Shown in pieces: positions 26,370 through 63,046 of a DNA stretch of 64,000 bases; positions within the stretch are counted from its first letter, which is position 1, and each line of letters starts with the position of its first letter. The position numbers and the translations under genes were made by a program. Below the pieces are notes generated by a model. That model searched no databases, was not told the DNA's origin, and saw only the letters and a program-made list of their open reading frames with translations. Source of the stretch: Mobula hypostoma (lineage: Eukaryota); assembly GCF_963921235.1 (NCBI RefSeq), contig NC_086097.1, positions 59,832,001-59,896,000 of the forward strand, read 5' to 3'.

Positions 26370-28090
26370 CCTCATCAGCATACTGTCCTTCCCTCTGTGC
26401 AATACAGCACTCACCATCAGCCTACTGTCCTCCCCTCCATACAATACACACCTCACCAATTATCAGCCTACCGTCCTCCCCTCTGTGCAATACAGCTCTA
26501 TGATCAGCCTACTGTCCTCCCCTCCATATAATACAAACCTCACCAATTATCAGCCTACCGCCCTCCCCTCTGTGCAATACAGCACTACGATCAGCCTACT
26601 GTCCTCCCCTCCATATAATACAAACCTCACCAATTATCAGCCTACCGTCCTCCCCGCTATGCAATACAGCCCTCACCATCAGCCTACTGTCCTCCCCTCC
26701 ATACTATACACACCTCACCAATCATCAGCCTACCGTACTCCCCTCTGTGCAATACAGCCCTCACCATCAGCCTACTGTCCTCCCCTCCGTACAATACACA
26801 CCTCACCAATCATCAGCCTACCGCCCTCCCCTCCACACAATATAGCACTCACCATCAGCCTACCATCCTCCCCTCCACACAATACAAACCTCACCAATCA
26901 TCAGCCTACCACCCTCCCCTCTGTGCAATACAGCCCTCACCATCAGCCTACTGTCCTCCCCTCCATACAATACACACCTCACCAATTATCAGCCTACCGT
27001 CCTCCCCTCTGTGCAATACAGCACTACGATCAGCCTACTGTCCTCCCCTCCATATAATACAAACCTCACCAATTATCAGCCTACCGTCCTCCCCGCTATG
27101 CAATACAGCCCTCACCATCAGCCTACTGTCCTCCCCTCCATACAATACACACCTCACCAATCATCAGCCTACTGTACTCCCCTCTGTGCAATACAGCCCT
27201 CACCATCAGCCTACTGTCCTCCCCTCCGTACAATACACACCTCACCAATCATCAGCCTACCGCCCTCCCCTCCACACAATATAGCACTCACCATCAGCCT
27301 ACCATCCTCCCCTCCACACAATACAAACCTCACCAATCATCAGCCTACCACCCTCCCCTCTGTGCAATACAGCCCTCACCATCAGCCTACTGTCCTCCCC
27401 TCCAAACAATACACACCTCACCAATTATCAGCCTACCGTCCTCCCCTCTGTGCAATACAGCACTACCATCAGCCTACTGTCCTCCCCTCCATATAATACA
27501 AACCTCACCAATTATCAGCCTACCGTCCTCCCCGCTATGCAATACAGCCCTCACCATCAGCCTACTGTCCTCCCCTCCATACAATACACACCTCACCAAT
27601 CATCAGCCTACCGCCCTCCCCTCCACACAATATAGCACTCACCATCAGCCTACCATCCTCCCCTCCACACAATACAAACCTCACCAATCATCAGCCTACC
27701 ACCCTCCCCTCTGTGCAATACAGCCCTCACCATCAGCCTACTGTCCTCCCCTCCATACAGTAGAAACCTCACCAATTATCAGCCTACCGCCCTCCCCTCT
27801 GTGCAATACAGCACTACCATCAGCCTACTGTCCGCCCCTCCATACAATACACACCTCACCAATCATCAGCCTACCACCCTCCCCTCTGTGCAATACAGCC
27901 CTCACCATCAGCCTACTGTCCTCCCCTCCATACAATACACACCTCACCAATCATCAGCCTACCATCCTCCCCTCCACACAATACAAACCTCACCAATCAT
28001 CAGCCTACCATCCTCCCCTCTGTGCAATACAGCCCTCACCATCAGCCTACTGTCCTCCCCTCCATACAATACAAACCTCACCAATTATCA
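26370..28090. repeat. Minisatellite of alternating 46-bp and 41/42-bp units (87-88-bp dimer) with higher-order periodicity of about 439 bp
   Basis: Core tcagcctacYgtcctcccct; variants (cccgctatgc, ccgtacaatac, ccacacaatatagc) recur 439 bp apart. Confidence 0.95.
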
Positions 28091-28322: not shown

Positions 28323-28610
28323 GTCTAGATGCTGCAGTTTTGTTCACACTCACTTTCATTCCTGACTGCATTATTGTTTGCAGTTTCCATTGAATCGGCA
28401 ACTTCAGCTGCTCTTTTAAATCTAAGTTGTGTTCCAGTCATGAGCCATTTTTGAATGCTTTCTTGTAAGATTCCATAAACTAAACAATCTCTCGGTGCAT
28501 CATTAAGCCCATCACTAAACTGTCAATGCTCAGGCAATTTCTTCAATGAGCCACATACACAGAAATGGACTCCGCTTCTTTTTGATTCTGCTTATGAAAT
28601 CTAAACCGTT
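28323..28610 (-). mobile_element. gag fragment of the old Gypsy-like element
   Basis: Minus strand RFRFHKQNQKEAESISVYVA..GLNDA.RD.LV.GILQESIQK. Confidence 0.65.
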
Positions 28611-30722
28611 TGACGCGACATTCGGTAATGGCCAAGTGCAGAGGAAGAGACACTGAAGTAGGTCGATTGTTCACAGACTTTAACGCGAATGGAATTTTAA
28701 GGGAAAGGAAAACAATAAATGCTAGGCCAAGCAGGACCATTAACTAAAACTCTCAAATTGAAAAACTAGTTACCAACACTACAGCTGAAAGGAATATTTA
28801 AATATAAAATGAATACCACTGGTCTCCAGCATCAGTCAGCTCGATAGTCCATTTTCTCAGGCAAGGACAAATGCAAGCAGGCAGCCTCACGTTGCCGTGC
28901 TTTGCTCAAGTCTCGACAAGCGCTACAATGAAAAGAAGGGAGTTAAATACTGCCATAATGAAACTGTAATTAGCTGACACATGCATATTCACGAGCACAA
29001 TTGCCTGCATGAGCATGTAGACCCTGTAACGGAATCTGTGGTTGTGGCAGGGACCCCTCCTGAGACGCCACAGACCTGTGCCCACTGAAAGTCTAAAATG
29101 AGCGACTTGTCCAAGATGTCCTCTCCTGGGATCCAAGAATGTTCTTCAGGACCATATCTTTCCTAATCCACAAGGTACTGGACCCTACCACGTACCCAGC
29201 GAGATGCCAGGAGGCGCCACACAGTATAGACCAGCAAACCCTCCAGTAAGCGGAGAGGAGGGGGAGATGTGGTGACTGGATCTAGAGGGAAGGTAATAAC
29301 TGACTTGAGCTGGGAAACATGGAACACTGGGTGTATCTTCATTGATGCTGGTAGACGCAATCGATTCAAGATCTTGTTGATCACTACAAGTGATCCCACA
29401 TAGTACGAGGCTAATTTCTGGTTCTCGACTTTCAGGGGAAGATCCTTTGATGCCAATCAGTGCTCTTCTCCTGGCTTGAAAGGCCAGACCTGACAGTGGA
29501 ACCAATCAGCCTGCCAGACATGTTGTTTCTGGGGGCATAGCAGAGAAGCCCTGGTTCGTCTCTAAGTGCACTTGTAGCACTGGATCTGCTGTTTAGTGGC
29601 AAGAACTCCTACATCAATCTCCTGGTCAGGGAAGAGCAGTGGCTGGAATCCCTCCTGGCATTCAAAGGGGGCCATACCATTGGCAGACAACTGGAAGTTA
29701 TTGTGGGCGATCTCTGCCCAAACCAATTGGGAGCTCCAGGATGTGGGGTTGGAAGGGGCAAGGCAGTGCAGGGTTGTCTCCAACTCTTGATTCATTAGAT
29801 TGGCCATTAGATTGGGGATAGAAACCAGATGAGAGGGTGGCCGTGATGCCTGCAAGAGAGCAGAAAGCTTTTCAAAATCCGAAATTGAACTGCGGTCCAC
29901 AATCAGACACTATGACTTGAGGGAAGATGTAGAGGCTGAACACATGTTGAACTATGAGAGTAGCAGTCTCACAAGCTGACAGGAGCTTTGGGAGGGCAAT
30001 GAAGTGGACAGCCTTTGAGAATCAATCTACAACAACCAAAATATAGTAGTGTCTCTATTAGATGGGGGCAGCCCAATGATAAAACCTACTGAGAGGTGGG
30101 ACCAGGGGTGGTGGGGCACAGGCCACAGACATAGCAGACCCACAGGATGGTGGTGTGATGTCCTGAGGGAGGTGGGACAGGCAGATACACAGCCATGAAC
30201 ATCCTGGGACATAAGTGGCCACCAACGTTGTCTCTTTATAAACTCCTGGGTCCGTTGAATTCCCGGATGGCCAGCCAGATGGAAGGAGTGACCCCATTCC
30301 AACACTTTGGAGTGCATCGTAGCAGGTACAAACAGCTGGTTGGGAGGTCCTCCACGTGGGCCTGGTTCTGACTGTTGAGCAGTTTTTGCCTCTGCCTCTG
30401 CTCCCCAGATCACTGGAACAGCAATGTACAAGTGCAGGAGTATAGGCTCTGGGTTGGCATTGTTCTCAGATCTATTGAACTGCTGGGAGAGAACATCAAC
30501 CTTGGTACTCTTGCTGCTGGGACAATAGGTGAAGATGAAATTAAAGTGGGTGAATAAGGAAAAGGAAAACAATTGAAACTAGGCCGAACAGGGCCATTAA
30601 CTAAACCCTCAAACAGAAAAATCTAGATGCCAACACCATAGCTGAAAGGAATATCTAAATGTAAAACAAATACCATTAGTCTCCAGCTTTAAGCAACTTG
30701 ATAGTCCATTTTCTCAGCCAAG
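28611..30722 (-). mobile_element. Second chromoviral Gypsy, internally deleted (integrase-chromodomain remnant between LTR sequences)
   Basis: ORFs 30027..30572 (HLAGHPG, PWSHLS), 29562..29900, 29163..29456 (IHPVFHVSQLK, VQYLVD); diverged direct repeat 28708-28866 / 30565-30722; purine tract near 29050. Confidence 0.8.
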
Positions 30723-33252: not shown

Positions 33253-35136
33253 CTAGACAACCCGGTGACCTGTTGGGGCACCCTTTGAGAGAAAGGTAGT
33301 GCAGTCTGATGTGGTGTGCTTTGGAAATTAAAGAAGAAAAACTCAGTTTACTAAAGAAGAAAGACGCATAGCAAGACAAATATAGCTCCTCCTCGTTTAA
33401 CGAAGGACACTTTTGATGACAAAATTTCTGGTTGATCTGCCACCCTTCAAGAATACTCTAACGTTTTTTTCCCCCTGGCTTAAAGCCACATACAGCTGAC
33501 CATGCTGGAATACCGGTTTCTCCAAATAAATCACCACATTCTCCATGATTTGGCCTCGCGCCTTACGTATAGTCATAACAAAGCGTGACTGTATCGGGAA
33601 CTGGCTCCACTGAAGAGGGACGTCTTCCCCTTCCGATAAATTGAGAGTAATTCTTGGGATCATGACAATATCACTTTTGAACACACCAATGTTTATCTTG
33701 GCTATGATGAGATTGTCGTACAGTTTTTCCACCACCATTCGCGTTCCATTGCAAAGCCTTGGTGGATCCAAGTTCCTCATTGAAATGATGGGAGATCCCC
33801 TCTTCAATTCCAGTTTATGTGGTGGCAATCCAGAGAGTTCAACTGAATCAAGGAATTCTGTTGGAAAATGAGTGACATCAGTTCCTTCACTTGTGGCACT
33901 GAAGGGACATTATTCTTTCATCATTTCAGGGAAGCATCTAATGCATGTGAAGTTTATTTTTTGCATCATTTCATTGAGAGGAACAAAGATAGGATTCCTC
34001 AAGAACAGTTCTGCAGGATTGTCGAATGTTGGGTGGATGAAATCAATGTATTCTTCCATAGTTTTTGCTGGCAGAATCATATCTACAGGTAATTTGATTT
34101 CATCGTTTTCATTTTTTTCAATCTTGTCTTCTCCAACATCCAGTAAGAACTCAGAATATCGTCCTTCTTCCTCACTCAATCGCATGTTTCTCTTCAATTG
34201 AAACTTGATGAAGCTTCTCCATAAGTAGGATATTTTTATGCATGATTTCTCCACATCAGCATCATTTCCGCATTTCACAACTGCTAGAAGCTGACGGAAA
34301 TTGCCACAGCAAATGGTTGAAATACACCCAAAGGCCTCATTCTTGTCACATACATCATGAAGAGTTCGGTCCACAGCTTTGAAGCTCTCCCTCCTAATCA
34401 TGGGGCTCTCAGCCCAGACAATAAGCCTCACATTTTGGAGTAAATTTGCAGTATTGGTGTTTTTATCAATGTTACAAAGAGCATCTTCATTGACTTTGAG
34501 GGGTATTTTGTATCTTGAATGCGCTGTTCTACCACCAGGCATCAATGTTGCAGCAATACCTGATGATGCTACAGCAATAGCAACGCCTCCGTCTCCCCTA
34601 ACTTTAGCGAGGATCAAGTTGATGATAAATGTCTTGCCCGTTCCTCCTGGTGCATCAATGAAAATCATTGAAGAGAGATTCCTTTCCAAGCAGTCGCACA
34701 CATCTATAGACTACTAAAATGCTCATGCTCTGTTTGTTGGTTTGTCTGTGTGTGACCTCCAATTAGCCCAAAAAGCGCATTACAGCGGCACTTTTTTTGA
34801 CTAAATCTGGTGTCGCGTTGCGGTTTCCATGAAAGGTGGAATCGGCTCTGTGAGCATCGTGAGGCGCTGCTGAGGCCGGCCATGCGCGTGCGTCGTGTTG
34901 TTACGTCGCGATTTCCATTAAAGCTGGAATCGGCTCGGGTTGTGGAAAGCGGGGCCTGTTGATTGACGAGTGAGCAATTTTATACGAATATATAACCCTG
35001 AACTTTGCATGCATTCTGTAAGTTAGCGCATTTTAAGTCGACTTAGTCAAAAAAAGTCCTGCTGTAATGCACCGTTTGGGCTAAGTGGAGGTCACGAACA
35101 GACAAACAGAGCATGAGAATTTTAGTAGTCTATAGA
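33253..35136 (-). mobile_element. Helitron, internally deleted (no Rep/HUH domain)
   Basis: Minus strand A|TCTATAGACTACTAAAA...CTAG|T; decayed hairpin 33261-33277 just before CTAG; Pif1 helicase inside. Confidence 0.88.
33397..34701 (-). pseudogene. Helitron Pif1-family (SF1B) helicase, frameshifted
   Basis: DAPGGTGKT, AVASSGIAATL..GGRTAHS, GNFRQL, NMRL, PPHKLELK, RLCNGTR, FQHGQLYVALS; Walker B reads WAE instead of WDE. Confidence 0.93.
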
Positions 35137-36749: not shown

Positions 36750-37442
36750 GGAGGGGAGGAGATGATGGCGACGCGATGCAGCGTGTGCAGCCACTCCGAA
36801 TTGATATTGTATTTGTGAAGTAGGATGCTGTGCACAATCCGGATTTGATGGAGACAGCTGTGAGAAACATGGAGGAACATCTGGATAAACTTCTGAAATA
36901 CCTGCTTCGCTACCACTGCTACTGTGTGATCGAGAATCTCCGGAGGGGAAGGCCCCAAATCCTTGGCTTTTCCTATTGCCTATTGCCGGGACCGGGGTTG
37001 AAGCGCTCGGCAGAGATGGTGTTCGGTGCTTGGTGTCAGAGAGCTGGTCAGAGGCTCAAAGTTTTCGGACGGACTCGGAGTCGGACCGTGGTCGGGTGCT
37101 TCCAGGGTGCTGCATCGGCAAGTTTGTGGCGCTGGAAGCTCATGGCAGGAAGAGTTTTCTTCCTTCAACCATCTGCGTGAGATGATGGGACTTTCGAGAG
37201 ACCTTGAGATTTTTTTTACCATGCCCATGGTCTGTTCTTCTATCAAATTACAGTATTGCTTGCACTGTTGTAACTATATGTTATAAATATGTGGTTTTTG
37301 TCAGTTTTTTTAGTCTTGGTTTGTCTTGTGTTTCTGCGATATCATTCTGGAGGAACAAATTGTATCATTTCTTAACGTATGCATTACTAAATGACAATAA
37401 AAGAGGACTGCGTGTCCTCATAATCTAATCTAATCTAATCTA
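36750..37442 (+). mobile_element. SINE-like non-autonomous element, copy A
   Basis: About 690 bp, starts ggaggagatgatggcg, ends aaatgacaataaa...(TAATC)n; three copies in the window. Confidence 0.75.
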
Positions 37443-37980
37443 ACTGTTAAGTGATCGTGCCGCACAAGGTTATCAGCTGGAGTTCTGTTAGATTGATCCT
37501 GAGCCATGAATTGAAATGCATGATAGCTACAAATTTTGAATTCAAGCAATTGAACATATCTAGGATTTCATTTTATAGTATTTTTCTCAGTAATTTTGGC
37601 CTTGCAAATTGCACTAGGTTGTTGCAAGAATGTATCTGGTTCACTGTGGATAGGACTGAGTACACCAGGGTATTGACAAGGAGGAGAACAGTTCTGAGCA
37701 CATACATTAAAAATTTGCTCAATCAGTCCATGTACTCTCCCAAAGCATTCTCATCAGCTTCTCAACTGATTTCTCTGCGACCTTTTTATCTGTGCTCCTT
37801 GAATCCGCCCAGCTCTCCAATTGCACACCTACACCAGGGACAAATTAAAAGTATTCAATTATCATCTCAATTAATATTTATTTAGAATGTGGGAGGAATT
37901 TAGAGCCCCTAAGGATTTTTACGAAGTTATGCAATTCCACTGCGATGGTAGGGTTTAGGATTGAAATGGTTTAGATGAGT

Positions 37981-39580
37981 AGTCATAGTCATAGTCATAG
38001 TCATACTTTATTGATCCCGGGGGAAATTGGTTTTCATTACAGTTGCACTATAAGTAATAAATAGTAATAGAACCATAAGTAGTTAAATAGTAATATGTAA
38101 ATTATGCCAGTAAATTATGAAATAAGTCCAGGACCAGCCTATCGGCTCAGGGTGTCTGACCCTCCAAGGGAGGAGTTGTAAAGTTTGATGGCCACAGGCA
38201 GGAATGACTTCCTATGACGCTCTGTGCTGCATCTCGGTGAAATGAGTCTCTGGCTGAATGTACTCCTGTGCCCACCCAGTACATTATGTAGTCGATGGGA
38301 GACATTGACCAAGATGGCATGCAACTTAGACAGCATCCTCTTTTCAGACACCACCGTCAGAGAATCCAGTTCCATCCCCACAACATCACTGGCCTTACGA
38401 ATGAGTTTGTTGATTCTGTTCGTGTCTGCTACCCTCAGCCTGCTGCCCCAGCACACAACAGCAAACATGATAGCACTGGCCACCACAGGCTCGTAGAACA
38501 TCCTCAGCATTGTCGGGCGGATGTTAAAGGACCTCAGTCTCCTCAGGAAATAGAGATGGCTCTGACCCTTCTTGTAGACAGCCTCAGTGTTCTTAGACCA
38601 GTCCAGTTTATTGTCAATTTGCATCCCCAGGTATTTGTAATCCTCCACCATGTCCACACTGACCCCCTAGATGGAAACAGGGGTCACCGGTACCTTAGCT
38701 CTCCTCAGGTCTACCACCAGCTCCTTAGTCTTTTTCACATTAAGCTGCAGATATTTCTGCTCACACCATGTGACAAAGTTTCCTACCGTAGCCCTGTACT
38801 TAGCCTCATCTCCCTTGCTGATGTATCCAACTATGGCAGAGTCATCAGAAAACTTCTGAAGATGATAAGACTCTGTGCAGTAGTTGAAGTCTGAGGTGTA
38901 AATGGTGAAGAGAAAGGGAGACAAGACAGTCCCCTGTGGAGCCCCAGTGCTGCTGATCACTCTGTCAGACACACAGTGTTGCAAGCACATGTACTGTGGT
39001 CTGCCAGTCAGGTAATCAAGAATTCATGATACCAGGGAAGCATCCACCTGCATCGCTGTCAGCTTCTCCCCCAGCAGAGCAGGGCAGATGGTGTTGAACG
39101 CACTGGAGAAGCCAAAAAACATGACCCTCACAGTGCTCGCTGGCTTGTCCAGGTGGGCGTAGACACGGTTCAGCAGATAGACGATGGCATCCTCAACTCC
39201 TAGTCGGGGCTGGTAGGCGAACTGGAGGGGATCTAAGTGTGGTCTGGCCATAGGCTGGAGCAGCTCCAGAACAAGTCTTTCCAGGGTCTTCATGATGAGG
39301 GAGGTCAATGCCACCGGTCTGTAGTCATTGAGGCCACTGGAGCGTGGTGTCTTCGGCACAGGGATAAGGCACGACGTCTTCCACAGTACAGGAACCCTCC
39401 GGAGCCTCAGGCTCATGTTGAATACATGGTGAAGTTCTCCACATAGCTGAGGGGTACAGGCTTTGAGCACCCTGGTACTGACACCATCCAGTCCTGCAGC
39501 CTTGCTTGGGTTGAGATGTTTCAGCTGTCTTCTCACCTGTTCAGCCGTGAAGCCCACCGTGGTGGTTTTGTGTGGAGGAG
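37981..39580 (-). mobile_element. Rex1/Babar LINE, 5'-truncated RT
   Basis: DYRPVALTS, DPLQFAYQ, FSSAFNTI, TGAPQGTVLSPFLF, KFSDD, YKYLG; (ATGACT)n tail; possible TSD gatgagta. Confidence 0.9.
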
Positions 39581-41469
39581 TAAGGGGATGAGTAAGGGGA
39601 TGGATTGCTCTGTAAGCTGGAATCATTAGTCTAATTGGCTGCCTTTTAAGTCTCAAGGACATGTAGCAATGTGAACTCTTCACTGCTAGCTGCAGTTGAT
39701 ATCTCTGAAAGTTTCAAAGGTTCAAAGGTTCATTTATCAAAGTATGCATGTACAATACAACTCTGCTATTTGTCTTCTCCAGATGGCCATGAAATATAGA
39801 AAAACCGTGGTGATTGATGAAAGAAAAGGCATAACCCCCCCACATGAAAAAGAGAAAGAAAAGGAAACAAAACTCGCAAACCCAAACCCCACACCTTGAA
39901 CAAAAAAATAACAGATTGCCCACACAGGAAACGGCAGCTAGAACATCAAAAACATGAAACCTCCAACCCCCCCACCCTCACACAAAAGGTAATAGACTGC
40001 CCACACAGAAAAACGCCAATAAGAACATCCAATCCCAAATCCCCATCCCCTCTCTCACAAGAAGTAACATATTGCCAACCTGGCAAATCAGCAATAATGT
40101 AAAAAACACACAGAAAAATGAAGGAGACCATTATAAACTACAGTCCAATAATCACATTAATCTCAGAATTTTGTAAGCATTCATTAGCATTGAGGGGAGC
40201 AGCTACATGAACTCATTCCTTCGGTGAAGAGTGACTGCCACCTCCTCCTCATTCACCTTGAAGCTTCAGTCGATCTTGACACTCTGAAATAGAGTCAATC
40301 ATGGCCACGATCCCTGACTCTGGTCTTCTCCATAAGGCAGCTCCTACTCTCGGTCATCTCAGCGTACAGCGGAGTGCTAGATCATTCCATTGAATTCCAA
40401 ACTGCGCATCACAGTTTGCAACCATTTCCAAAACACAATCAAGACAAAATTAATAAGCAGAAGATGGAGAGAAAGTGAATTAATTGAAGAGATTGTCTAC
40501 CTGGAATATGTTGCCTCAGGAATGATTGTTCACTAGCGCTATCTTGGCCAATATTCATGCCATGTATGAATATTCAGAAGGGCCATTTTCATCATGATAC
40601 CCCTCCATATATTAAACGATTTGTCTAAGTTAACTCAGAATCTGAAATAACATACGCTGAGAGGTAAAGAGAGAATTTAAAAAATAATCTGGAGGTCTGA
40701 GACGCAGAATGTAACAGTGTCTGGAAATTGAAGACAAAAAGAACTCTAGATATATCTAGCAGACTTGATAGCATCTGTGCAGAGAGAGAAAGAAAAACTG
40801 ATCGAATGTTATTTGTGCATGACCTAACATCAATACTGACTAGTTGTGATGCAAATACAAAAGCCTGATTATTTGTAATTATTGATTTCAATATTGAGAC
40901 CTAAAGGCTTCCTTGTGGCCAAAGGGAAGATAATCAAATGTTTCTTGAGCTTACATTAGGTTTCATTGCAATCATGTTTGGGACAAAAGACAGAGAGTTC
41001 AAAATAGGATCTGGATGGAGAATTAAATTCATCGGCTCTGGGTTAACCCTGCTGATTGAATGGAGGTGTTTTGCAAATTAATCTTTGGTAACAACATGCA
41101 TCTCCATATCACTAAAGCACTACACTAAGTGCAAGTGTACTGATAATTCAACTAGACAAGTGGCTTGAATCCTTGAGGTAATCCCTAACAAGGGGCAGTG
41201 AGGTAAAAGGTCAGGTATGGTAATTCATGTGGTTGCATGAGAAACTGCTCTAAGAAACAGAGTGAAAGTTGGTAAAGGAGCAATATCAAAACAAGGAGGA
41301 ACCGAGGAAGCAGTTTGTTTGAAAGGGAAGAAGAAGAAGGTAAGTCCATTGATCAAATCTCATTGAATCTACAAAGTAAGGGCTGATATTAGTTAAATGT
41401 GTCAATATTGACACAGTTGGGAAAGCAGAGACCACAAGTTCTAGGGAAGAGCTTGATTCTAATTTTCTT

Positions 41470-41917
41470 AAGCACGAGGAATTCTGCAGATGCTGGAAAT
41501 TCAAGTAACACACATCAAAGTTGCTGGTGAATGCAGCAGGCCAGGCAGCATCTCTAGGAAGAGGTACAGTCGACGTTTTGGGCCGAGACCCTTTGTCAGG
41601 ACTAACCGAAGGAAGAGCTAGTAAGAGATTTAAAAGTGGCGGGGGAGGGGGAGATCCAAAATGATAGGAGAAGACAGGAGGGGGAGGGATGGAACCAAGA
41701 GCTGGACAGATGATTGACAAAAGGGATATGAGAGGATCATGGGACAGGAGGCCCAGGGAGAAGGAAAAGTGGGGGGGGGCCCAGAGGATGGGCAAGGGGT
41801 AGTCAGATATACACACATTCTTTCTCTCTCTCTCCTTTTTCTCCCTCTGTCCCTCTGACTACCCCTTGCCCATCCTCTGGGTTTTTTCAAAAACTTCAAA
41901 AACTTTGATGTGTGTTG
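41470..41917 (-). mobile_element. Penelope-derived terminal-repeat fragment with decayed hammerhead and short inversions (duplicated at about 46667-47115)
   Basis: Minus strand tagtcCTGACAAagggtctcggcccAAAACGTCgactg at 41567-41604; TSD ttctaa(t/c)tttctt; 28-bp inverted repeat 41780-41807/41854-41881. Confidence 0.75.
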
Positions 41918-41940
41918 TTCTAACTTTCTTGTTATTTATA

Positions 41941-42627
41941 AGGAGGGAGGAGAAGATGGTGACACAACGCAGCGCCCACAGCCTCTCCGGTGAAATGAAC
42001 TAGTATTTGTTAAATAGGGGCCATGCACAATCCTGATTTGATGGAGACAGACGTGAAAAGCATGAAGAAACATCTGGAGAAACTTCTGAAATGCCCGGTT
42101 CGCTGCCGCTGCTACTGTGCGATCGAGAATCTCCGGAGGGAAAGCCCCAAATCCTCGGCTTAGTCTGTTGCTGGCGGCCGGGGCTGGGGTCAAAGCGCTC
42201 GGCAGAGATGGTGCTCGGTGTCGAAGGGCTGGTTGGAGGCTCGAAGTTTTCAGACGGACTGAGAGTCGGACTGTGGTCGGGTGCTTCCAGGATGCTGCAT
42301 CGGCAAGTTTGCGGCGCGGGAAGCTCATGGCAGGGAGAGTTTTCTTCCTTCAACCATCTGCGTGAGATGATGGGACTTTCGAGAGACCTTGAGATTTTTT
42401 TTACCATGCCCATGGTCTGTTCTTCTATCAAATTACAGTATTGCTTGCACTGTTGTAACTATATGTTATAAATATGTGGTTTTTGTCAGTTTTTTTAGTC
42501 TTGGTTTGTCTTGTGTTTCTGCGATATCATTCTGGAGGAACAAATTGTATCATTTCTTAACGTATGCATTACTAAATGACAATAAAAGAGGACTGCGTGT
42601 CCTCATAATCTAATCTAATCTAATCTA
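41941..42627 (+). mobile_element. SINE-like element, chimeric copy B
   Basis: 5' part identical to copy C, 3' part identical to copy A. Confidence 0.85.
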
Positions 42628-43165
42628 ACTGTTAAGTGATCGTGCCGCACAAGGTTATCAGCTGGAGTTCTGTTAGATTGATCCTGAGCCATGAATTGAA
42701 ATGCATGATAGCTACAAATTTTGAATTCAAGCAATTGAACATATCTAGGATTTCATTTTATAGTATTTTTCTCAGTAATTTTGGCCTTGCAAATTGCACT
42801 AGGTTGTTGCAAGAATGTATCTGGTTCACTGTGGATAGGACTGAGTACACCAGGGTATTGACAAGGAGGAGAACAGTTCTGAGCACATACATTAAAAATT
42901 TGCTCAATCAGTCCATGTACTCTCCCAAAGCATTCTCATCAGCTTCTCAACTGATTTCTCTGCGACCTTTTTATCTGTGCTCCTTGAATCCGCCCAGCTC
43001 TCCAATTGCACACCTACACCAGGGACAAATTAAAAGTATTCAATTATCATCTCAATTAATATTTATTTAGAATGTGGGAGGAATTTAGAGCCCCTAAGGA
43101 TTTTTACGAAGTTATGCAATTCCACTGCGATGGTAGGGTTTAGGATTGAAATGGTTTAGATGAGT

Positions 43166-44765
43166 AGTCATAGTCATAGTCATAGTCATACTTTATTGAT
43201 CCCGGGGGAAATTGGTTTTCATTACAGTTGCACTATAAGTAATAAATAGTAATAGAACCATAAGTAGTTAAATAGTAATATGTAAATTATGCCAGTAAAT
43301 TATGAAATAAGTCCAGGACCAGCCTATCGGCTCAGGGTGTCTGACCCTCCAAGGGAGGAGTTGTAAAGTTTGATGGCCACAGGCAGGAATGACTTCCTAT
43401 GACGCTCTGTGCTGCATCTCGGTGAAATGAGTCTCTGGCTGAATGTACTCCTGTGCCCACCCAGTACATTATGTAGTCGATGGGAGACATTGACCAAGAT
43501 GGCATGCAACTTAGACAGCATCCTCTTTTCAGACACCACCGTCAGAGAATCCAGTTCCATCCCCACAACATCACTGGCCTTACGAATGAGTTTGTTGATT
43601 CTGTTCGTGTCTGCTACCCTCAGCCTGCTGCCCCAGCACACAACAGCAAACATGATAGCACTGGCCACCACAGGCTCGTAGAACATCCTCAGCATTGTCG
43701 GGCGGATGTTAAAGGACCTCAGTCTCCTCAGGAAATAGAGATGGCTCTGACCCTTCTTGTAGACAGCCTCAGTGTTCTTAGACCAGTCCAGTTTATTGTC
43801 AATTTGCATCCCCAGGTATTTGTAATCCTCCACCATGTCCACACTGACCCCCTAGATGGAAACAGGGGTCACCGGTACCTTAGCTCTCCTCAGGTCTACC
43901 ACCAGCTCCTTAGTCTTTTTCACATTAAGCTGCAGATATTTCTGCTCACACCATGTGACAAAGTTTCCTACCGTAGCCCTGTACTTAGCCTCATCTCCCT
44001 TGCTGATGTATCCAACTATGGCAGAGTCATCAGAAAACTTCTGAAGATGATAAGACTCTGTGCAGTAGTTGAAGTCTGAGGTGTAAATGGTGAAGAGAAA
44101 GGGAGACAAGACAGTCCCCTGTGGAGCCCCAGTGCTGCTGATCACTCTGTCAGACACACAGTGTTGCAAGCACATGTACTGTGGTCTGCCAGTCAGGTAA
44201 TCAAGAATTCATGATACCAGGGAAGCATCCACCTGCATCGCTGTCAGCTTCTCCCCCAGCAGAGCAGGGCAGATGGTGTTGAACGCACTGGAGAAGCCAA
44301 AAAACATGACCCTCACAGTGCTCGCTGGCTTGTCCAGGTGGGCGTAGACACGGTTCAGCAGATAGACGATGGCATCCTCAACTCCTAGTCGGGGCTGGTA
44401 GGCGAACTGGAGGGGATCTAAGTGTGGTCTGGCCATAGGCTGGAGCAGCTCCAGAACAAGTCTTTCCAGGGTCTTCATGATGAGGGAGGTCAATGCCACC
44501 GGTCTGTAGTCATTGAGGCCACTGGAGCGTGGTGTCTTCGGCACAGGGATGAGGCACGACGTCTTCCACAGTACAGGAACCCTCCGGAGCCTCAGGCTCA
44601 TGTTGAATACATGGTGAAGTTCTCCACATAGCTGAGGGGTACAGGCTTTGAGCACCCTGGTACTGACACCATCCAGTCCTGCAGCCTTGCTTGGGTTGAG
44701 ATGTTTCAGCTGTCTTCTCACCTGTTCAGCCGTGAAGCCCACCGTGGTGGTTTTGTGTGGAGGAG
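43166..44765 (-). mobile_element. Rex1/Babar LINE, duplicate copy
   Basis: Same ORFs as 37981-39580, shifted by 5185. Confidence 0.9.
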
Positions 44766-47138
44766 TAAGGGGATGAGTAAGGGGATGGATTGCTCTGTAA
44801 GCTGGAATCATTAGTCTAATTGGCTGCCTTTTAAGTCTCAAGGACATGTAGCAATGTGAACTCTTCACTGCTAGCTGCAGTTGATATCTCTGAAAGTTTC
44901 AAAGGTTCAAAGGTTCATTTATCAAAGTATGCATGTACAATACAACTCTGCTATTTGTCTTCTCCAGATGGCCATGAAATATAGAAAAACCGTGGTGATT
45001 GATGAAAGAAAAGGCATAACCCCCCCACATGAAAAAGAGAAAGAAAAGGAAACAAAACTCGCAAACCCAAACCCCACACCTTGAACAAAAAAATAACAGA
45101 TTGCCCACACAGGAAACGGCAGCTAGAACATCAAAAACATGAAACCTCCAACCCCCCCACCCTCACACAAAAGGTAATAGACTGCCCACACAGAAAAACG
45201 CCAATAAGAACATCCAATCCCAAATCCCCATCCCCTCTCTCACAAGAAGTAACATATTGCCAACCTGGCAAATCAGCAATAATGTAAAAAACACACAGAA
45301 AAATGAAGGAGACCATTATAAACTACAGTCCAATAATCACATTAATCTCAGAATTTTGTAAGCATTCATTAGCATTGAGGGGAGCAGCTACATGAACTCA
45401 TTCCTTCGGTGAAGAGTGACTGCCACCTCCTCCTCATTCACCTTGAAGCTTCAGTCGATCTTGACACTCTGAAATAGAGTCAATCATGGCCACGATCCCT
45501 GACTCTGGTCTTCTCCATAAGGCAGCTCCTACTCTCGGTCATCTCAGCGTACAGCGGAGTGCTAGATCATTCCATTGAATTCCAAACTGCGCATCACAGT
45601 TTGCAACCATTTCCAAAACACAATCAAGACAAAATTAATAAGCAGAAGATGGAGAGAAAGTGAATTAATTGAAGAGATTGTCTACCTGGAATATGTTGCC
45701 TCAGGAATGATTGTTCACTAGCGCTATCTTGGCCAATATTCATGCCATGTATGAATATTCAGAAGGGCCATTTTCATCATGATACCCCTCCATATATTAA
45801 ACGATTTGTCTAAGTTAACTCAGAATCTGAAATAACATACGCTGAGAGGTAAAGAGAGAATTTAAAAAATAATCAGACAAACGTTCTGGAGGTCTGAGAC
45901 GCAGAATGTAACAGTGTCTGGAAATTGAAGACAAAAAGAACTCTAGATATATCTAGCAGACTTGATAGCATCTGTGCAGAGAGAGAAAGAAAAACTGATC
46001 GAATGTTATTTGTGCATGACCTAACATCAATACTGACTAGTTGTGATGCAAATACAAAAGCCTGATTATTTGTAATTATTGATTTCAATATTGAGACCTA
46101 AAGGCTTCCTTGTGGCCAAAGGGAAGATAATCAAATGTTTCTTGAGCTTACATTAGGTTTCATTGCAATCATGTTTGGGACAAAAGACAGAGAGTTCAAA
46201 ATAGGATCTGGATGGAGAATTAAATTCATCGGCTCTGGGTTAACCCTGCTGATTGAATGGAGGTGTTTTGCAAATTAATCTTTGGTAACAACATGCATCT
46301 CCATATCACTAAAGCACTACACTAAGTGCAAGTGTACTGATAATTCAACTAGACAAGTGGCTTGAATCCTTGAGGTAATCCCTAACAAGGGGCAGTGAGG
46401 TAAAAGGTCAGGTATGGTAATTCATGTGGTTGCATGAGAAACTGCTCTAAGAAACAGAGTGAAAGTTGGTAAAGGAGCAATATCAAAACAAGGAGGAACC
46501 GAGGAAGCAGTTTGTTTGAAAGGGAAGAAGAAGAAGGTAAGTCCATTGATCAAATCTCATTGAATCTACAAAGTAAGGGCTGATATTAGTTAAATGTGTC
46601 AATATTGACACAGTTGGGAAAGCAGAGACCACAAGTTCTAGGGAAGAGCTTGATTCTAATTTTCTTAAGCACGAGGAATTCTGCAGATGCTGGAAATTCA
46701 AGTAACACACATCAAAGTTGCTGGTGAATGCAGCAGGCCAGGCAGCATCTCTAGGAAGAGGTACAGTCGACGTTTTGGGCCGAGACCCTTTGTCAGGACT
46801 AACCGAAGGAAGAGCTAGTAAGAGATTTAAAAGTGGCGGGGGAGGGGGAGATCCAAAATGATAGGAGAAGACAGGAGGGGGAGGGATGGAACCAAGAGCT
46901 GGACAGATGATTGACAAAAGGGATATGAGAGGATCATGGGACAGGAGGCCCAGGGAGAAGGAAAAGTGGGGGGGGGGCCCAGAGGATGGGCAAGGGGTAG
47001 TCAGATATACACACATTCTTTCTCTCTCTCTCCTTTTTCTCCCTCTGTCCCTCTGACTACCCCTTGCCCATCCTCTGGGTTTTTTCAAAAACTTCAAAAA
47101 CTTTGATGTGTGTTGTTCTAACTTTCTTGTTATTTATA

Positions 47139-47820
47139 AGGAGGGAGGAGAAGATGGTGACACAACGCAGCGCCCACAGCCTCTCCGGTGAAATGAACTA
47201 GTATTTGTTAAATAGGGGCCATGCACAATCCTGATTTGATGGAGACAGACGTGAAAAGCATGAAGAAACATCTGGAGAAACTTCTGAAATGCCCGGTTCG
47301 CTGCCGCTGCTACTGTGCGATCGAGAATCTCCGGAGGGAAAGCCCCAAATCCTCGGCTTAGTCTGTTGCTGGCGGCCGGGGCTGGGGTCAAAGCGCTCGG
47401 CAGAGATGGTGCTCGGTGTCGAAGGGCTGGTTGGAGGCTCGAAGTTTTCAGACGGACTGAGAGTCGGACTGTGGTCGGGTGCTTCCAGGATGCTGCATCG
47501 GCAAGTTTGCGGCGCGGGAAGCTCATGGCAGGGAGAGTTTTCTTCCTTCTACCGTCTGAGTGAGATGTTAGGACTTTCGAGAGACTTTGAGACTTTTTTT
47601 TACCATGCCCATGGTCTGTTCTTCTATCAAATTACAGTATTGCTTGCACTGCTGTAACTATATGTTATAATTATGTGTTTTTTGTCAGTTTTTCAGTCTT
47701 GGTCTGTCTTGTGTTTCTGTGATATCACACTGGAGGAACATTGTATCATTTCTTGATGCATGCATTACTAAATGACAATGAAAGAGGACTGCGTGTCCTC
47801 ATAATCTAATCTAATCTAAT
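47139..47820 (+). mobile_element. SINE-like element, copy C
   Basis: Same family, (TAATC)n tail. Confidence 0.75.
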
Positions 47821-48319
47821 TTATAGAAAACCTTGTATGGACTAAGTCAAATGAAGATTTAGTTCAATTCCTGAACAAAATGTAAAATCCATGGCAAAAT
47901 GGTGTCTGGCCTAAAGTTCTGAAGATCTTCTGAGGCTGACCCAGTAATATCTGGCCAACATAACACTAACATACAGGAGGATAAATACAGACTGTGAACA
48001 ATCATGTCAGTGTGGGAAGTCTTGTTGACAATCCAACAGCGAAGATCAGAGGAGATGTCTTTGAAACTCCAAAAGTAATTGCATGCAAGAAGAAAGATTT
48101 GGCATCTACAGAGAGTTAAAACAGGATGCAGGATGCGAAGCTGGGGGAATACTTCAGAGAGGTGAAATGTAACTTGCAATTAAGAGTTCATTTTTCTACA
48201 ATTCTTTATGACTTAGGAAGTGAGTACTTAATGCATTCAGTTAACATCAGCTTAGACAGTAATCCCATTCCCCCACTAGTTTTCACTATAACCTGTACGT
48301 CACTGTACTTGTGCATTTG

Positions 48320-50035: not shown

Positions 50036-50936
50036 TGATTCTAAATCGAGCAGCCACCTTCATAAAGAACAATGTACAGAGGCCAGTTCACCTCCAATCC
50101 TGTACATTTTTGAAAAAATACAAGAAAACTAGAGCACACAGAGGAAACCCATCCAGCCACATGAAGAAAGTCCATCTCCATACTCACATTACCGTAAGAT
50201 GCACAAGTCACTGGAATGAACCCAATTCACTGGAGGTAAGAGGCAGAAGCCGTACTAGATGCATCACTAAGATAAAAGGGAGCTTAGACGAAGTAGATTC
50301 AAAATTGCTTTAATTCATAACTATATATCAATGTACTTATTTGATTGTATAACTTCATATTTGTAAAGAGAATGATGACTTGTTTGGTTTTATTACTTTT
50401 ATAAAGACTCACACAAGTGTATTGATGCGTTGGGTAATTTAAGAATCGGTTGATAGCACATGGTATTACTTGATATATAGTTTTGCCAACACCTTGCAGT
50501 TTTAGCTGAGTTACTGACTTCAATAAAGGATGTTCTATTTATATCTCTACCACTTTATTTACATATGAAAATAGCATCACAAAGAAACCTGCAGGCATTG
50601 CATTATGAACCAGTTTATTGACCTAAAAGCATGATTATAATTCATAATAATTCCAACACCACATGAAAATGTAGCTATGCAGAAAAAGTCTTTAAGTGTT
50701 AGGCATTAACAAGATAAAAAAGGAAGGTAGGATGAGAGATTTAATAGATACAATATAAATAAAACTTTTGCAATATCTGGTCTCCTGAGTAGCTAAAAGG
50801 AAAACTGCTGGTGGAGGTGATTATATACATTTTAGAAAAATAATAAAATAATCAGGAATGGCAAGCAGATGGGAATATTTTCATTACCTTCACACAGCTG
50901 TAGCTGAAAATTTACTGATAAAAATCTCTTATATAG

Positions 50937-51136
50937 GCATCAATGTTCCAAGTATGCCAGTACAATTCTACAGAAGTGAGAATGTTTTTAGACTACCTGC
51001 AACAAAATTGTGGCAACAGTGTTTGCACTGTAGTTCCGCCAATGCCGTACAGAAGCATGAGTGCTGTGGCCATGGCAGCTTTATTTGTCATCCAGCTAAG
51101 CATTCACTCAAACGCTGCCAATGATCTTTATCACAA
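50937..51136 (+). CDS. Putative host exon 1 of 4 (200 nt, phase 0-2)
   Basis: ctcttatatAG|GCA TCA ATG..CAC AA|GTgatc; ASMFQVCQYNSTEVRMFLDYLQQNCG..AANDLYH; donor is weak. Confidence 0.6.
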
Positions 51137-56306: not shown

Positions 56307-56449
56307 ATATTTCACTTAGAGTGGAGACATTACACCAATTACATGAAGAAAAGATGAGGCCACATCTTACCGCACTGGAAAGAGCTGAGATAACATTTAC
56401 TAGACTATGAATGGGAGGGTTGTCTCATGAGGAATAATTAGATAGAACT

Positions 56450-58395
56450 TACTGTATATGTACAGACTTTATTTGGAAATGCACGGAGGACTGCGTGTCT
56501 TGCAAGACAATCCGGGTATTCCCTAACCGGAAACCTTGGATGAATTATGAGGTTAAGTCCCTTTTAAAGGCTAGAGCTACGGCTTTTAGGTCCGGAGATA
56601 CCAGTCGCTGCATGGAATCCAGGCATGAACTCCGGAAAGCCATTAATGGTGACAAGAGGCAATATCAAACCAAGTTGGAAGCCCAGGTTAACCAGAGGGA
56701 TGCCAGTAGACTATGGCAGGGTCTAAATGAGATCACTGGGTGCAAAGGAAAGGCTGGGAACATCAATAACTGTGGTACTTCTCTTCCTGATGAATTTAAC
56801 GTATTCTACGCAAGATTCAAACGGAAGAGGAGCGTCCTGCTCCCTCCAGATGAACCGGACCTGGTGGCATTGAGATTCATCATCACCAAGGAGGACATTA
56901 GAAGGACCTTCCCGAAGATAAATCCAAGGAAGGCAACGGGCCCAGATGGCATCCTAGGATGGGTTCTCCAGGCCTGTACAAGCAAGCTAGCTGGAGTGTT
57001 TGCTGACATCTTCAACTGCTCCTTGCTTCAGTCTAAGATCCCCTCATGTTTTAAGAAGGCAACGATAATCCCAGTGCTGAAGAAGAGCAAGGTGGCATGC
57101 CAGATTGACTATCGACCTATGGCTCTGACGTCAATTGCTATGATGTGCTTCGAGAGATTGGTTATGGCACACATCAACCACAGCCTACCGGTTGACCTCG
57201 ACGCTTTGCAATTCACCTACCGGAGCAACGAGTCAACGGCAGATGCCATCTCTCTGGCCCTACGTTCCTCCTCAGAACACCTGGAGAATAAAGATGCATA
57301 CGTAAGGCTCCTTTTCATTGACTACAGCTCTGCCTTTAATACCATCATTCCAAATAAACTGATTCCTAAGCTCCGGAACCTGGGCCTTAGCACTCAGATC
57401 TGCAGCTGGATCTTCAACTTCCTCACAGAGAGCACCCAGGCTGTAAAAATAAGCTCTCCTCTACAATCACTCTGAGCACCGGTGCCCCACAAGGCTGTGT
57501 ACTCAGCCCCCTGCTGGACTCACTGTACACCCATCATTGTGTAGCCAAGTTTCCATCAAACTCAATATGTAAGTTTGCTGATGACACAAAAATTGCAGGC
57601 CGTTTCTCGGGTAATGATGAGTTTGAGTACAGAATGGAAATTAAGAACCTGGTGTCATGGTGCGAAGACAATAACCTATTCCTCAACATCAGCAAGACAA
57701 AGGAATTGGTTGTTGACTTCAGAAGGAGTAGTGGACCGCACGAGTGCGCAAGTGGAACAGATCAAAAGCTTTAAGTTCCTCAGTGTCAATATCAAAAATG
57801 ACCTGACTTAGTCCTACCAAGCAGAGTTCACTGCCAAGAAGGCCCACCAGTACCTTTACTTCCTAAGAAAACTAAAGAAATTTGGCCTGTCCCCTAAAAC
57901 CCTCACTAATTTTTATAGATGCACCATAGAAAGCATTCTTCTCGGGTGCATCAGAACCTGGTATGGAAGTTGTCCTGTCCAAGACGGAAAGAAGCTGCAG
58001 AAGATTGCGAACATGGCACAGCACATCACACAAACCAATCTTCCGTCCTTGGACTCCCACCTGGAGAAGGCTCAGGAGCTTGAAGACTTGTATGGCCAGA
58101 TTTGGGAACAGTTTCTTTCCAACTGTGATAATACTGCTGAACGGATCCTGACCTGGATCTGGGCCATACCTTCCAAATATCCGGACCTACCTCTCAGTTT
58201 TCTTGCACTACCTTACTTTCCATTCTTCTATTTTTTATTTTTGATTTATAATTTAAATTTTTATATTTATGAATTTTATCTATTTTTAATATTTAATATT
58301 TGTAATCCAGGTAGTGGGAAGCGCAGAATCAGATATCGCTGTGATGATTGTACGTTCTAGTATCAATTGTTTGTTGACAATAAAGTATAAAGTCT
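56450..58395 (+). mobile_element. Rex1/Babar LINE, 5'-truncated, degenerate
   Basis: ORF 56495..57475 (NRKPWMN, KATGPDG, DYRPMALTS, FIDYSSAFNTI), then GAPQGCVLSP and KFADDT in shifted frames; ends gacaataaagtataaagt. Confidence 0.9.
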
Positions 58396-58399
58396 ATGT

Positions 58400-58571
58400 G
58401 GGGTGTCGGGGTCTCTGGATAGAGGTTGTACCTTTGATGTCTGGCAGTTGCACTTTACTTCATAGGGTAGACAGGCATCGCTGGTGCTCATCCATCTCCT
58501 AAATCTCTCATATCTGCCTCCAAGTGGCACACCCCGGCACACCACTTCAGCTCGTGGGCTAAGTAATGTGA
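58400..58571 (+). ncRNA. Putative HDV-like self-cleaving ribozyme at the head of a short element (about 58398-58772)
   Basis: P1 GGGGTGT 58400-58406/ACACCCC 58529-58535; P3 GCC 58516-58518/GGC 58526-58528; L3 TCCAAGT; P1.1 GG 58536-58537; P4 CCAC/GTGG; J4/2 GCTAA with C58559; P2 TCATAT 58508-58513/ATGTGA 58566-58571. Confidence 0.72.
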
Positions 58572-59624
58572 AGGGGTGGTGTTAACATGGAATCACTGGG
58601 TGATGGACCTCAACGAAGTTATCGGCCGTGGTGGATGGTTTCCCAGAAGAACTACACTGGCCATGTGCTTGAGACCAGGGTGAGCTGTCAAGTTGGAAGA
58701 CATCGACTGTGGTCTGGCCTGGAGAGGGATGGCCTCACTATCTCAAGACACGTGAAGGCACCCCTATGACCTGTGAAAAGAGCTGCAGGATCTAAACTGA
58801 ACTATGTGTTGGTGTTTCTGAAGGGCCTTGATAGAGTGGAAATGGAATGGCTGCTTCTTTTTGTGGGAAAATGTGGAATCAAGTTAAAATGAGCATCACC
58901 AACATAAGTCAGGGAAGAAGTGCATTCTTTTGCTCTTAAGTCAAAAATCCATCTATGATCAATGATTCACTGATGCTCAGTTTTTGACATATTAAAAGAT
59001 TAAACAGGTTTTACCAAGCTTTTCTGATGGCGGAATATGTCTATCCAGGGTAAGGTTGTGCAAAAATCACCTGGGAATATTTGATATGTATAAAATCAAT
59101 TGTTGCTGGTTAATAATTTTGATCTGTTTTTGTTTTCGTTTTTCCAGCTCTGGTCATGGGTCCCTGACCTAAAACATTTTCTTTTTTTCTATATTCACAA
59201 ATGCTGTTTGATCTTTTGAGTACTCACGGTGCTTTCTGTATGATAGTTTAGACAACTTTATCTGATGGTATTTTTGGAGGTTTCAGAACATCACAACTTC
59301 CCAACATCCCCCACCATCTATAATGACTTTATAACTACTACGATTATAGTTATGGAAACTTTTATGTAGAGACAAGTGACATTGTTCAGGTCCTAAATGG
59401 ATATTTGTCTATCGGTCTTCCAAATTAATAGTGAGAGAGAAAATCGTTGAGTTGCTCAAATTATATAGACTATTGAATTAGGGGAGTTATGCTAAGTTTA
59501 TTTTCATGGGGTGGTTAATAGTTTTGGAACTCTCTATTATATAGATAAAAATTAGAAAACTTTGTACATTTGTTCAAAGTAGAAGCCTTCCAGTCTTCAT
59601 TTATCATTACAACTGGTCATTTAG

Positions 59625-59820
59625 GCCTTTATCCTCAAAAAGGCAGAATCTCACTTGGTAAAAATATTAATGGTCAGTGTTCAAAATTATTTCCTGGAAT
59701 CAGCAAGGAAAAAATTTTCAGCACAGCCAGATTCTGGGGAAAAGGTCCTAGCTACTGTTGATCTACAGTTACCAGGTTCTGTGTGGTCAATGTGCACCAC
59801 TGAAGAGAAAGATGCAAAAG
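59625..59820 (+). CDS. Putative host exon 3 of 4 (196 nt, phase 0-1)
   Basis: ggtcatttAG|GCC TTT..GCA AAA G|GTattt; AFILKKAESHLVKILMVSVQNYFLESARKK..TEEKDAK. Confidence 0.65.
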
Positions 59821-61139
59821 GTATTTGATGCCTTTCAAAAGGGGAAAATTCTGTTCGTAAACAAAATGATATTATCATCATTTATTATATTGCACTACCA
59901 TCATATTAAAAAATTGCAAACATTTTTGCAGTCAACATTCCTTATATGAAGAATGCATTTTGTTGTTATAATGGTCACAGTTGATTTAATATGAACTCAT
60001 GCTTAAGACAAACAAGTGCTGAAGTAGGAACTGTTTGGAAGATTATGCACCAAAACTGTATGAAGATGGATTTGTACAGATCTCCCACAGGGATCTGTTC
60101 CGACACTTGGATTTTTCTATATTTAGTACTGATCTAGAAATAGTTGATCCACAATTTTGCAAATGACACCAGGATCTGTGTGAGGGGCAAGGATATAGAT
60201 GATGCTCAATTACTTCTGGTAGGGTTAGATGCCTTGGGAGGCTGACTGTGAATGGCAAATGATAGATCATTTAGAAAATACAATGTTACACACATGGGCA
60301 GGGTAAATGTAGACAATGCATGCACCTTCCAGTGTAAAGCTTTAAATTTGATAGGGAATTAAAGAGATCTGTCTATTAAAATAAGTAGATTCAAGTCCTA
60401 TCCAAACTTGTGTTTCTCTATAGTCCATTACCATCCTGTTTTAATTTTTCTGTCACCCCCCCCCCCACCATTGTCCTTTAATGTTAACTGCCTTCCACCC
60501 TGTCACAGACATGCATTTGTTCTCCTCTTCCACTGCAACCTTAAATTCAGGTTTATTCTAATTTTCCCTGTTCTTATGAAAGACCATTTACCTGAAGCAT
60601 GTCTGCTAAATCTGTCATTCTCTATCCATGCTGCCCGACCTGCAATATATATTTTCAACAATAGCATGATTTCAAGTGTATAGGGATGCATTTATACAAC
60701 AAATAATTAAAAGGCAAGTACACTGGACTAGAAATTTGATTGTGGAGTGCTACATATTTCAGTGTAATGTGGTTAAAAATGCTTTCTTCCAGCAGTGATA
60801 TATGATAATGACTGTTTCTGGGTCATTTGCCTCCCATTAGAGATTTGACTACACACTTCTCTCCATGAGATGTGCTTGCATATAATTTCCATATCACACA
60901 TACATCACTGACACAATTGAAACTTTGCATAAAGTCAAAACAGAAAACTCCCTATGAGATGCATCAACACAAAAGTTAGACAGGATTCTTCTGAGCGACG
61001 ATCATGTTCACTTCTGAAGCAGCCGTGCTTTCTGCTGAACTGGACAGGGCCCACACTAAGGCAAGTTTCATTGGTTACCTTTGGGCCTTCCTCCCCAGTG
61101 GTTCTGACATTCCCCAACATCCTTCTGGAAAGGTTTAAT

Positions 61140-62690: not shown

Positions 62691-62974
62691 CTCAGCTATA
62701 AATCACATGAGAATATCTTAGAGTGAAAAATATAACTGCTGTTTCACCCTGGAAGACAAAGTTTATGTATGTAGATAGCATTGTTTAAATACTACAAAGA
62801 ACCGAGCTGTCTTTTTTTGAAACATCCTTTCATAGCCAAGAGAGAAGTAAGCATTTTATTCAGCTGGTCAAGTCTGGCTTTGAACAGAGGTATCAGAGAT
62901 TTAAAAATTTGCTCTATTATATATTTTACTGTCGAATCATACATAATGATGAACCTTTCCCTTCTGTGAAACAG

Positions 62975-63046
62975 CAGTCTCAGGATCTGACAGAAGAACA
63001 GATCAAAATTGTGATAGAATTCACGTACTCAATTACAAGGTCTTAA
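62975..63046 (+). CDS. Putative host exon 4 of 4 (72 nt, phase 1-1), NAGNAG acceptor
   Basis: tttcccttctgtgaaacAG|CAG..GTC TTA A|GTacgt; (A)VSGSDRRTDQNCDRIHVLNYKVL. Confidence 0.6.
   Translation, partial: QSQDLTEEQIKIVIEFTYSITRS

Follow-up and report, generated by a model that had tools for sequence, protein, structure and literature searches.

Positions 58400–58801 of the window (the whole 64,000-nucleotide stretch of Mobula hypostoma DNA that was analysed) are very probably a decayed derivative of a 3.4-kb RTE-type LINE, whose ribozyme head likely cut the ancestral RNA at G58400 and is likely poor or inactive in this copy. The comparison of relatives also points to an apparently new feature, a covarying H-type pseudoknot before the RTE start codon.

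A bipartite element derived from an RTE-type LINE

Copies of the element are dispersed through the genome (3.48 Gb). A first look gave 328 candidates, of which 40 were scored, and the 39 other scored copies are 74–83% identical to 58400–58801. Homology begins sharply at G58400 across copies. The end proposed in the original prediction, 58772, is wrong, and the element runs to 58801 (Table 1). Among 26 full-length copies, 15 have a T immediately ahead of G1, and wherever a target-site duplication is visible this base comes from the target.

Table 1 Features of the 58400 element and neighbouring elements in the window
Feature	Position	Strand	Remarks
999–1565 family copy	999–1565	+	Ribozyme core homologous; L3 carries an inserted hairpin
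Unrelated LINE fragment	56441–58393	+	RVT_1 and PF09004 matches; tail 58381–58393
5' target-site duplication CTATGT	58394–58399	+	7 nt with G58400 included
Bipartite non-autonomous RTE-type element, full-length decayed copy	58400–58801	+	10.9% non-CpG divergence from family majority
P1 5' strand GGGGUGU	58400–58406	+	Predicted cleavage leaves G58400 as first base; also the family 5' boundary
J1/2, 98 nt, predicted multi-stem domain	58407–58504	+	−42.1 kcal/mol in family majority, −30.5 in this copy
P2 5' strand	58505–58515	+	Decayed
P3, L3 (U58519, C58520–C58521, G58524), P3', P1', GG of P1.1	58516–58537	+	All intact
P1' ACACCCC	58529–58535	+	
GG of P1.1	58536–58537	+	
P4 hairpin, 4 bp	58542–58557	+	
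J4/2 GCUAA	58558–58562	+	Predicted catalytic C58559
P2 3' strand	58563–58574	+	Two C-A mismatches; 58573–58578 can pair with P1' instead
Pre-AUG pseudoknot remnant	58716–58745	+	S2 5' strand and part of S1 3' lost in an 11-nt deletion after 58730
Internal-deletion junction	58755–58757	+	ACA microhomology (LINE start-codon region / LINE 3' end)
Last ~36 nt of parent LINE and decayed (AACCG)n tail	58758–58801	+	
3' target-site duplication CTATGT	58802–58807	+	Repeat of 58394–58399

The short form consists of the first ~355 nt of a single-ORF LINE of ~3.4 kb, recovered from longer stretches around copies, joined to its last ~36 nt. Both parts come from this one autonomous LINE with the ORF deleted, the arrangement of a bipartite element; the endonuclease ORF continues past ~58755 in 6 of the first 30 loci examined. 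The majority of 20 parent-LINE copies has one 1017-aa ORF, 82% identical to the full-length protein P0002, and single copies match Exo_endo_phos and RVT_1 in Pfam. A single ORF with APE and RT domains, a size of ~3.3 kb and a microsatellite tail are typical of the RTE clade. The parent, at ~3.4 kb, shows all of these, and an RTE-type assignment, made by architecture rather than by an RT tree with named references, fits it.

A junction pattern had 61 matches genome-wide and none in the control. The junction lies inside an ACA that the LINE's start-codon region shares with its 3' end, and it reads ACA in one copy and AAA in most. A diagnostic T is present in 23 of 34 short copies versus 1 of 21 LINE-type copies, and the tail unit is (AACCG)n in the short form versus (TAACCG)n in the LINE. 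Direct repeats of at least 7 nt flank 11 of 31 short copies, a set that does not contain the 58400–58801 copy, compared with 1.2 when the ends are shuffled. The common junction, target-site duplications and tail that spread after the deletion would leave are thus found, and on the strength of the shared junction, diagnostic T, own tail unit and direct repeats we conclude that, once the deletion had arisen, retrotransposition multiplied the short form independently. An identity as a Pol III SINE was rejected, with no tRNA, 5S or 7SL head, no Rfam match and a 5' end that is the LINE's own 5' UTR.

Some other copies differ in build. Locus L026 carries another, longer internal deletion that retains the start-codon region and more of the 3' end, and in three LINE copies (L047, L053 and L054) the 5' part is inverted, presumably as in twin priming, which is best known for L1. 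At the 3' end a variable loop flanked by CGACCC and GGGTTG was seen by eye, whereas the minimum-energy fold differs. A helix joining the 5' and 3' ends was rejected as a general feature: the best helix of the parent LINE is equalled by 69 of 200 shuffles (4, 24 and 184 of 200 for the LINE loci L086, L098 and L107), and the deletion junction is the ACA microhomology.

The ribozyme head and its relatives

P1, P3 GCC/GGC closing UCCAAGU, the GG, a short P4 and GCUAA all lie where the original prediction had placed them, and J1/2, put at about 100 nt, measures 98 nt. The predicted P2 is likewise present, but its 6 bp are what is left of a bulged P2 of 11 bp. The parts form the nested double pseudoknot (P1, P1.1, P2, P3, P4) of HDV-like ribozymes, with P2 degraded here and perfect in the family majority. 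G1, the U and G of L3, the CC/GG pairs and the C and AA of J4/2 are all in place in the 58400 copy, in line with the roles that such residues have in HDV-like ribozymes (given in part in the accessible text of PMC3774820). A canonical-loop HDV descriptor has its sole match in the window at 58400, against 0.18 matches per window in 150 dinucleotide shuffles (both strands), and an all-Watson–Crick P1 occurs in 1 of the 150. This single-copy case is suggestive only, and the family evidence decides. Rfam returned no ribozyme match to 58400 at the gathering level or at E 10, curated HDV-type models included, which the long J1/2 may account for.

In the family majorities the helices pair fully, with 7 bp in P1 and 3 bp in P3; P2 has 10 bp, a further U-A pair that closes it, and a single bulged base. 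Among the best 30 junction-selected loci, 24 start no more than 10 nt from G1 and 6 are 5'-truncated; family 5' ends at G1 are the expectation for an RNA whose first base is set by cleavage.

The original prediction took the 58400 element to be unrelated to the one at 999–1565. Their bodies indeed do not align (the blastn match is 17 nt only), but their ribozyme cores are colinear with compensatory changes and are homologous: P3 and two P2 pairs are changed, and one P4 pair by eye. Both are deletion derivatives of RTE-type LINEs, from different lineages. The common tat(a/g)t start was read correctly, but not its meaning. Because these bases are target-site DNA at 58400 but part of the element in the 999–1565 family, the likeness of the upstream tatgt is coincidental. 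The 999–1565 family (4863 first-look candidates, the best 39 at 95–96%) opens with GGGGTAT, ~9 nt upstream of its perfect P1 (window 1003–1018, L056–L084), a sequence identical to the P1 5' strand of a third family. In body the 999–1565 family corresponds, by eye, to the lineage of WALLSI / RTE-3_AMi / RTE-1_PSi given in the supplement of Kojima 2018 as far as accessible. A second copy of the 999–1565 element lies at 5544–6137, within a large inverted duplication (94%) at window 1–7144.

The third family comprises a sister LINE with a ~82% identical 5' UTR (L210, L214, L219 and L221) and its own bipartite derivative (L207, L209, L211, L212 and L218), whose junction is different and whose short form has a 5-bp junction hairpin. 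Compared with the 58400 family, P1, P2 and P3 each carry one compensatory change (G-C to A-U in P1, C-G to G-C in P3 and C-G to G-C in one P2 pair). At least two ribozyme-headed non-autonomous families had been proposed, and there are three. They provide natural compensatory pairs for vertebrate RTE ribozymes missed by Rfam.

More distant relatives came from metagenomes. Alignment and inspection by eye reveal this core, altered at additional positions and in part mispaired, in the RTE loci L086, L120 and L098, of which L086 and L120 are single decayed copies with P1 mismatches. A strict HDV descriptor found no canonical match in 80 metagenome loci, and a search of viral contigs found no relatives; four loci from prokaryote genome contigs were left out of the analysis. 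In the six-row ribozyme alignment 83% of cells pair, compared with 37–52% when the rows are slid, and the helices covary as in HDV-like ribozymes, with double changes in P1, P2 and P3 (P4 by eye).

State of the 58400 copy and its surroundings

The 56 distinct copies with a 5' end have a mean non-CpG divergence of 9.5%. Across them the ribozyme core decays at the same pace as its flanks (p 0.48 and 0.95), and no selection on the core after insertion was detected. The P2 duplex of the 58400 copy has −4.6 kcal/mol compared with −16.7 in the majority, ranking 48 of 56, and this drop is why its cleavage is probably weak. ViennaRNA folds, in which the pseudoknotted state is outside the scoring, give P1 a probability of 0 in the nested fold of 58400–58579, because P1' pairs downstream with 58573–58578; within the first 138 nt the probability of P1 and P3 is near 1. 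We put the chance of meaningful ribozyme activity of this copy at about one in four.

The copy had been placed in an intron, where an active copy would cut the host pre-mRNA; this scenario is not supported, as the searches turned up no host gene and the P2 of this copy ranks with the weakest. In Pfam only retroelement domains pass among 14 and 7 candidate ORFs of the window. Homologue searches of 62792–63043 and 33931–34086 found none, phmmer gave no match to the candidate exons, and Atlas returned nothing above 0.78 for 50855–51121. Two splice-site scans of the window demonstrated no host exon, although blank results in all these searches do not prove that a gene is absent. The region 59600–60400 is, by eye, an old reverse-transcriptase remnant. 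The copy is very probably without function for the host.

Two readings of the ribozyme differ from ours. That the 58400 copy is an active ribozyme cutting a host pre-mRNA in an intron and altering expression is very unlikely. Every core pair and catalytic residue (P1, P3, P1.1) is intact only here among the 56 copies, and P1 and P3 fold first, leaving co-transcriptional cleavage possible. Against this, neutral decay would by itself leave about one copy intact (0.78 expected), P2 is weak at −4.6 kcal/mol, and the exon candidates have no Pfam, homologue or phmmer match; the intact core is probably why this copy was noticed. That the pairings of a G/C-rich repeat end arose by chance and no ribozyme ever existed is hardly credible: a loose descriptor does match 24 of 150 shuffled windows and an Rfam match is absent, but UCC...G, GG and GCUAA are conserved, P1, P2, P3 and P4 show double compensatory changes between families, and family 5' ends fall at G1. 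The preferred reading remains a genuine ancestral ribozyme in a decayed copy.

P1 does follow shortly after the tail of the upstream LINE fragment, which we take to be Rex1. The flank with this tail is common to no other copy of the element, and the tail is a chance neighbour. Elsewhere the window holds a 5.9-kb tandem duplication (98%) at 36754–47823 and a tandem array of ~88 nt at 26372–28090. On the minus strand, Helitron-like Pif1-type helicase fragments (33397–34710) and integrase/chromodomain fragments of an LTR retroelement (28325–30578) were labelled by eye.

A pseudoknot before the start codon

In the RTE LINEs examined, an H-type pseudoknot lies ~11 nt before the start codon (7–19 nt across these LINEs), in the order S1 (5–8 bp), a 7-nt purine-rich loop, S2 (5–7 bp), CCA/CCG, S1', a spacer, S2' and ATG. 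In a ten-row alignment, from whose related rows the structure was itself read, 84.9% of cells pair compared with 27–56% when slid; in these same rows 5 of 12 pairs change on both sides and none of 500 shuffles reaches the paired fraction. Of 10 metagenome RTE loci, 5 have a match to a generic descriptor close to the start, compared with 0.042 matches per 150-nt window elsewhere; four of these five shaped the reading of the motif, and L127 (35% identity to the search query) is independent. Within the ORF, too, the descriptor has three matches.

A genome search for the motif gave 442 matches. The 20 that were fetched divide into 4 copies of the sister LINE, 5 of its bipartite form and 11 of a tRNA-headed composite SINE (L204–L206, L208, L213, L215–L217, L220, L222 and L223). 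In this SINE, which has a relaxed ARAGORN match in 10 of 11 and no ribozyme, the RTE part starts exactly at S1, after poly(A). A BovB-like motif has 14,119 genome matches, a bipartite family (L224–L243) whose pseudoknot has the same architecture. With S2' and most of S1 lying outside the search pattern, 11 of the 20 fetched have a 7-bp S2 and 15 an S1 of at least 4 bp. The first bases at the 5' end of this family form a 7-bp pairing, and the descriptor found no HDV core there. L229 is a BovB-like LINE, 29% identical to the parent LINE, with the ATG directly after the motif. The pseudoknot is thus kept by four ORF-less derivatives in this genome. It is broken in the 58400–58801 copy, and a similar deletion occurs in L015/L016.

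As far as the Kojima supplement is accessible, the same two stems with different sequences were seen by eye in the RTE 5' piece of CoeSINE4/5, HaSE2_DP, SINE2-1_PXu, MAR1, SINE2-2_ACar, SINE-1_Pmo, AFROSINE3 and SINE2_Gav. WALLSI and the 999–1565 lineage have a different knot and HaSE1/3 a weak one, again by eye. A search of this genome for the CoeSINE-type motif found none. At the end of the 5' part of the 999–1565 element (window 1450–1505) there is a possible other pseudoknot with a 7-bp stem and an interrupted second stem. In a metagenome RTE-type LINE (L107:165–350), by eye, a tRNA-like sequence upstream of the pseudoknot replaces the ribozyme.

Proposed mechanism and role of the pseudoknot

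Deletion of the ORF from the 3.4-kb RTE-type LINE would have produced the bipartite non-autonomous element. A host transcript would read through a copy, the ribozyme would cleave 5' of G1, freeing the element RNA from the read-through transcript, and the endonuclease/reverse transcriptase of the parent would bind the 3' tail and, as we propose, the pre-AUG pseudoknot. A new copy would then be inserted in trans by target-primed reverse transcription.

For the pseudoknot we favour a cis role in template recognition, with a probability that we judge to be about even, over a role in translation only or in RNA stability. It is favoured because elements without an ORF, and even without a ribozyme, retain the pseudoknot, and because a reverse transcriptase stalling there would break templates at the 3' edge of the pseudoknot and lose it. 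It is possible, but doubtful, that the sole role of the pseudoknot is to help start translation of LINE RNA that the ribozyme has cut and that bears no cap, and that it is a passenger in the non-coding derivatives. Its end close before the ATG agrees with this, the tRNA-SINE joins the pseudoknot at an A-rich microhomology, and part of it is missing in two independent insertions (58400–58801 and L015/L016). Yet four ORF-less derivatives keep it, one of them without a ribozyme and with an RTE piece that starts at S1, and by eye it is also kept in butterfly, coelacanth, lizard, python, marsupial and afrotherian SINEs in the accessible published sequences. A function in RNA stability or some other role is unlikely.

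Given a cis role in template recognition, the RTE protein may, as we tentatively suggest, need the conserved pseudoknot in its template; it could then be the 5' piece that all RTE-dependent SINEs keep, and the reason why the parasites are bipartite. With the same reserve, this reading might cover Bov-A, MAR1, AfroSINE, CoeSINE, HaSE2 and the SINEs found here, the pseudoknot and not the ribozyme being what is kept. The ~45-nt pseudoknot with its defined pairs is a direct target for mutagenesis. If the reading is true, the pseudoknot would delimit the minimal element that a template needs in gene-insertion systems based on RTEs, where UTRs are under empirical optimisation according to the accessible part of PMC13708176.

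Comparison with known systems

A ribozyme like the one at 58400 is to be expected in an RTE element, and the copy itself is a fossil. The arrangement is already known, since RTE 5' ribozymes and bipartite derivatives are published (PMC5786205, PMC6765202 and PMC7245038, as far as accessible). HDV-like ribozymes at RTE 5' ends are reported by Ruminski et al. 2011, as cited in the accessible text of PMC5786205 and PMC6765202, and share with ours the topology and the position at the first base of the element. In the 58400 family a conserved bulged nucleotide follows the first P2 pair, and J1/2 is structured and 98 nt long.

Bipartite RTE LINEs lacking an ORF are described in the available text of Kojima 2018 (PMC5786205), namely RTE-N1_Lch, RTE-N2_Lch, RTESINE1/2, MAR4_MD and Bov-A. 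Like our element they join the 5' UTR and 3' end of a single-ORF LINE by internal deletion and bear a microsatellite tail; according to the same text, such elements usually retain the LINE 5' end, which is linked to the ribozyme. None of four diagnostic motifs of the 58400 family occurs in its supplement text. In the text available, no structure is modelled and the word pseudoknot is absent. No published description of an RTE pre-AUG pseudoknot was found in a search whose scope lay outside Repbase, Dfam, patents and key subscription papers.

In Drosophila, R2 SIDEs, for which cleavage has been shown (Eickbush and Eickbush 2012; accessible part of PMC3414825), likewise combine a ribozyme with a LINE 3' end and are mobilised in trans, as would be the case at 58400. 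They belong to the R2 clade and are rDNA-specific, whereas the 58400 family is dispersed and APE-type with a predicted ribozyme. According to the accessible text of PMC6765202, the R2 5' pseudoknot is bound by the R2 protein and acts in integration apart from self-cleavage, much as the pre-AUG pseudoknot might in RTE elements, although it differs from the latter in clade and fold.
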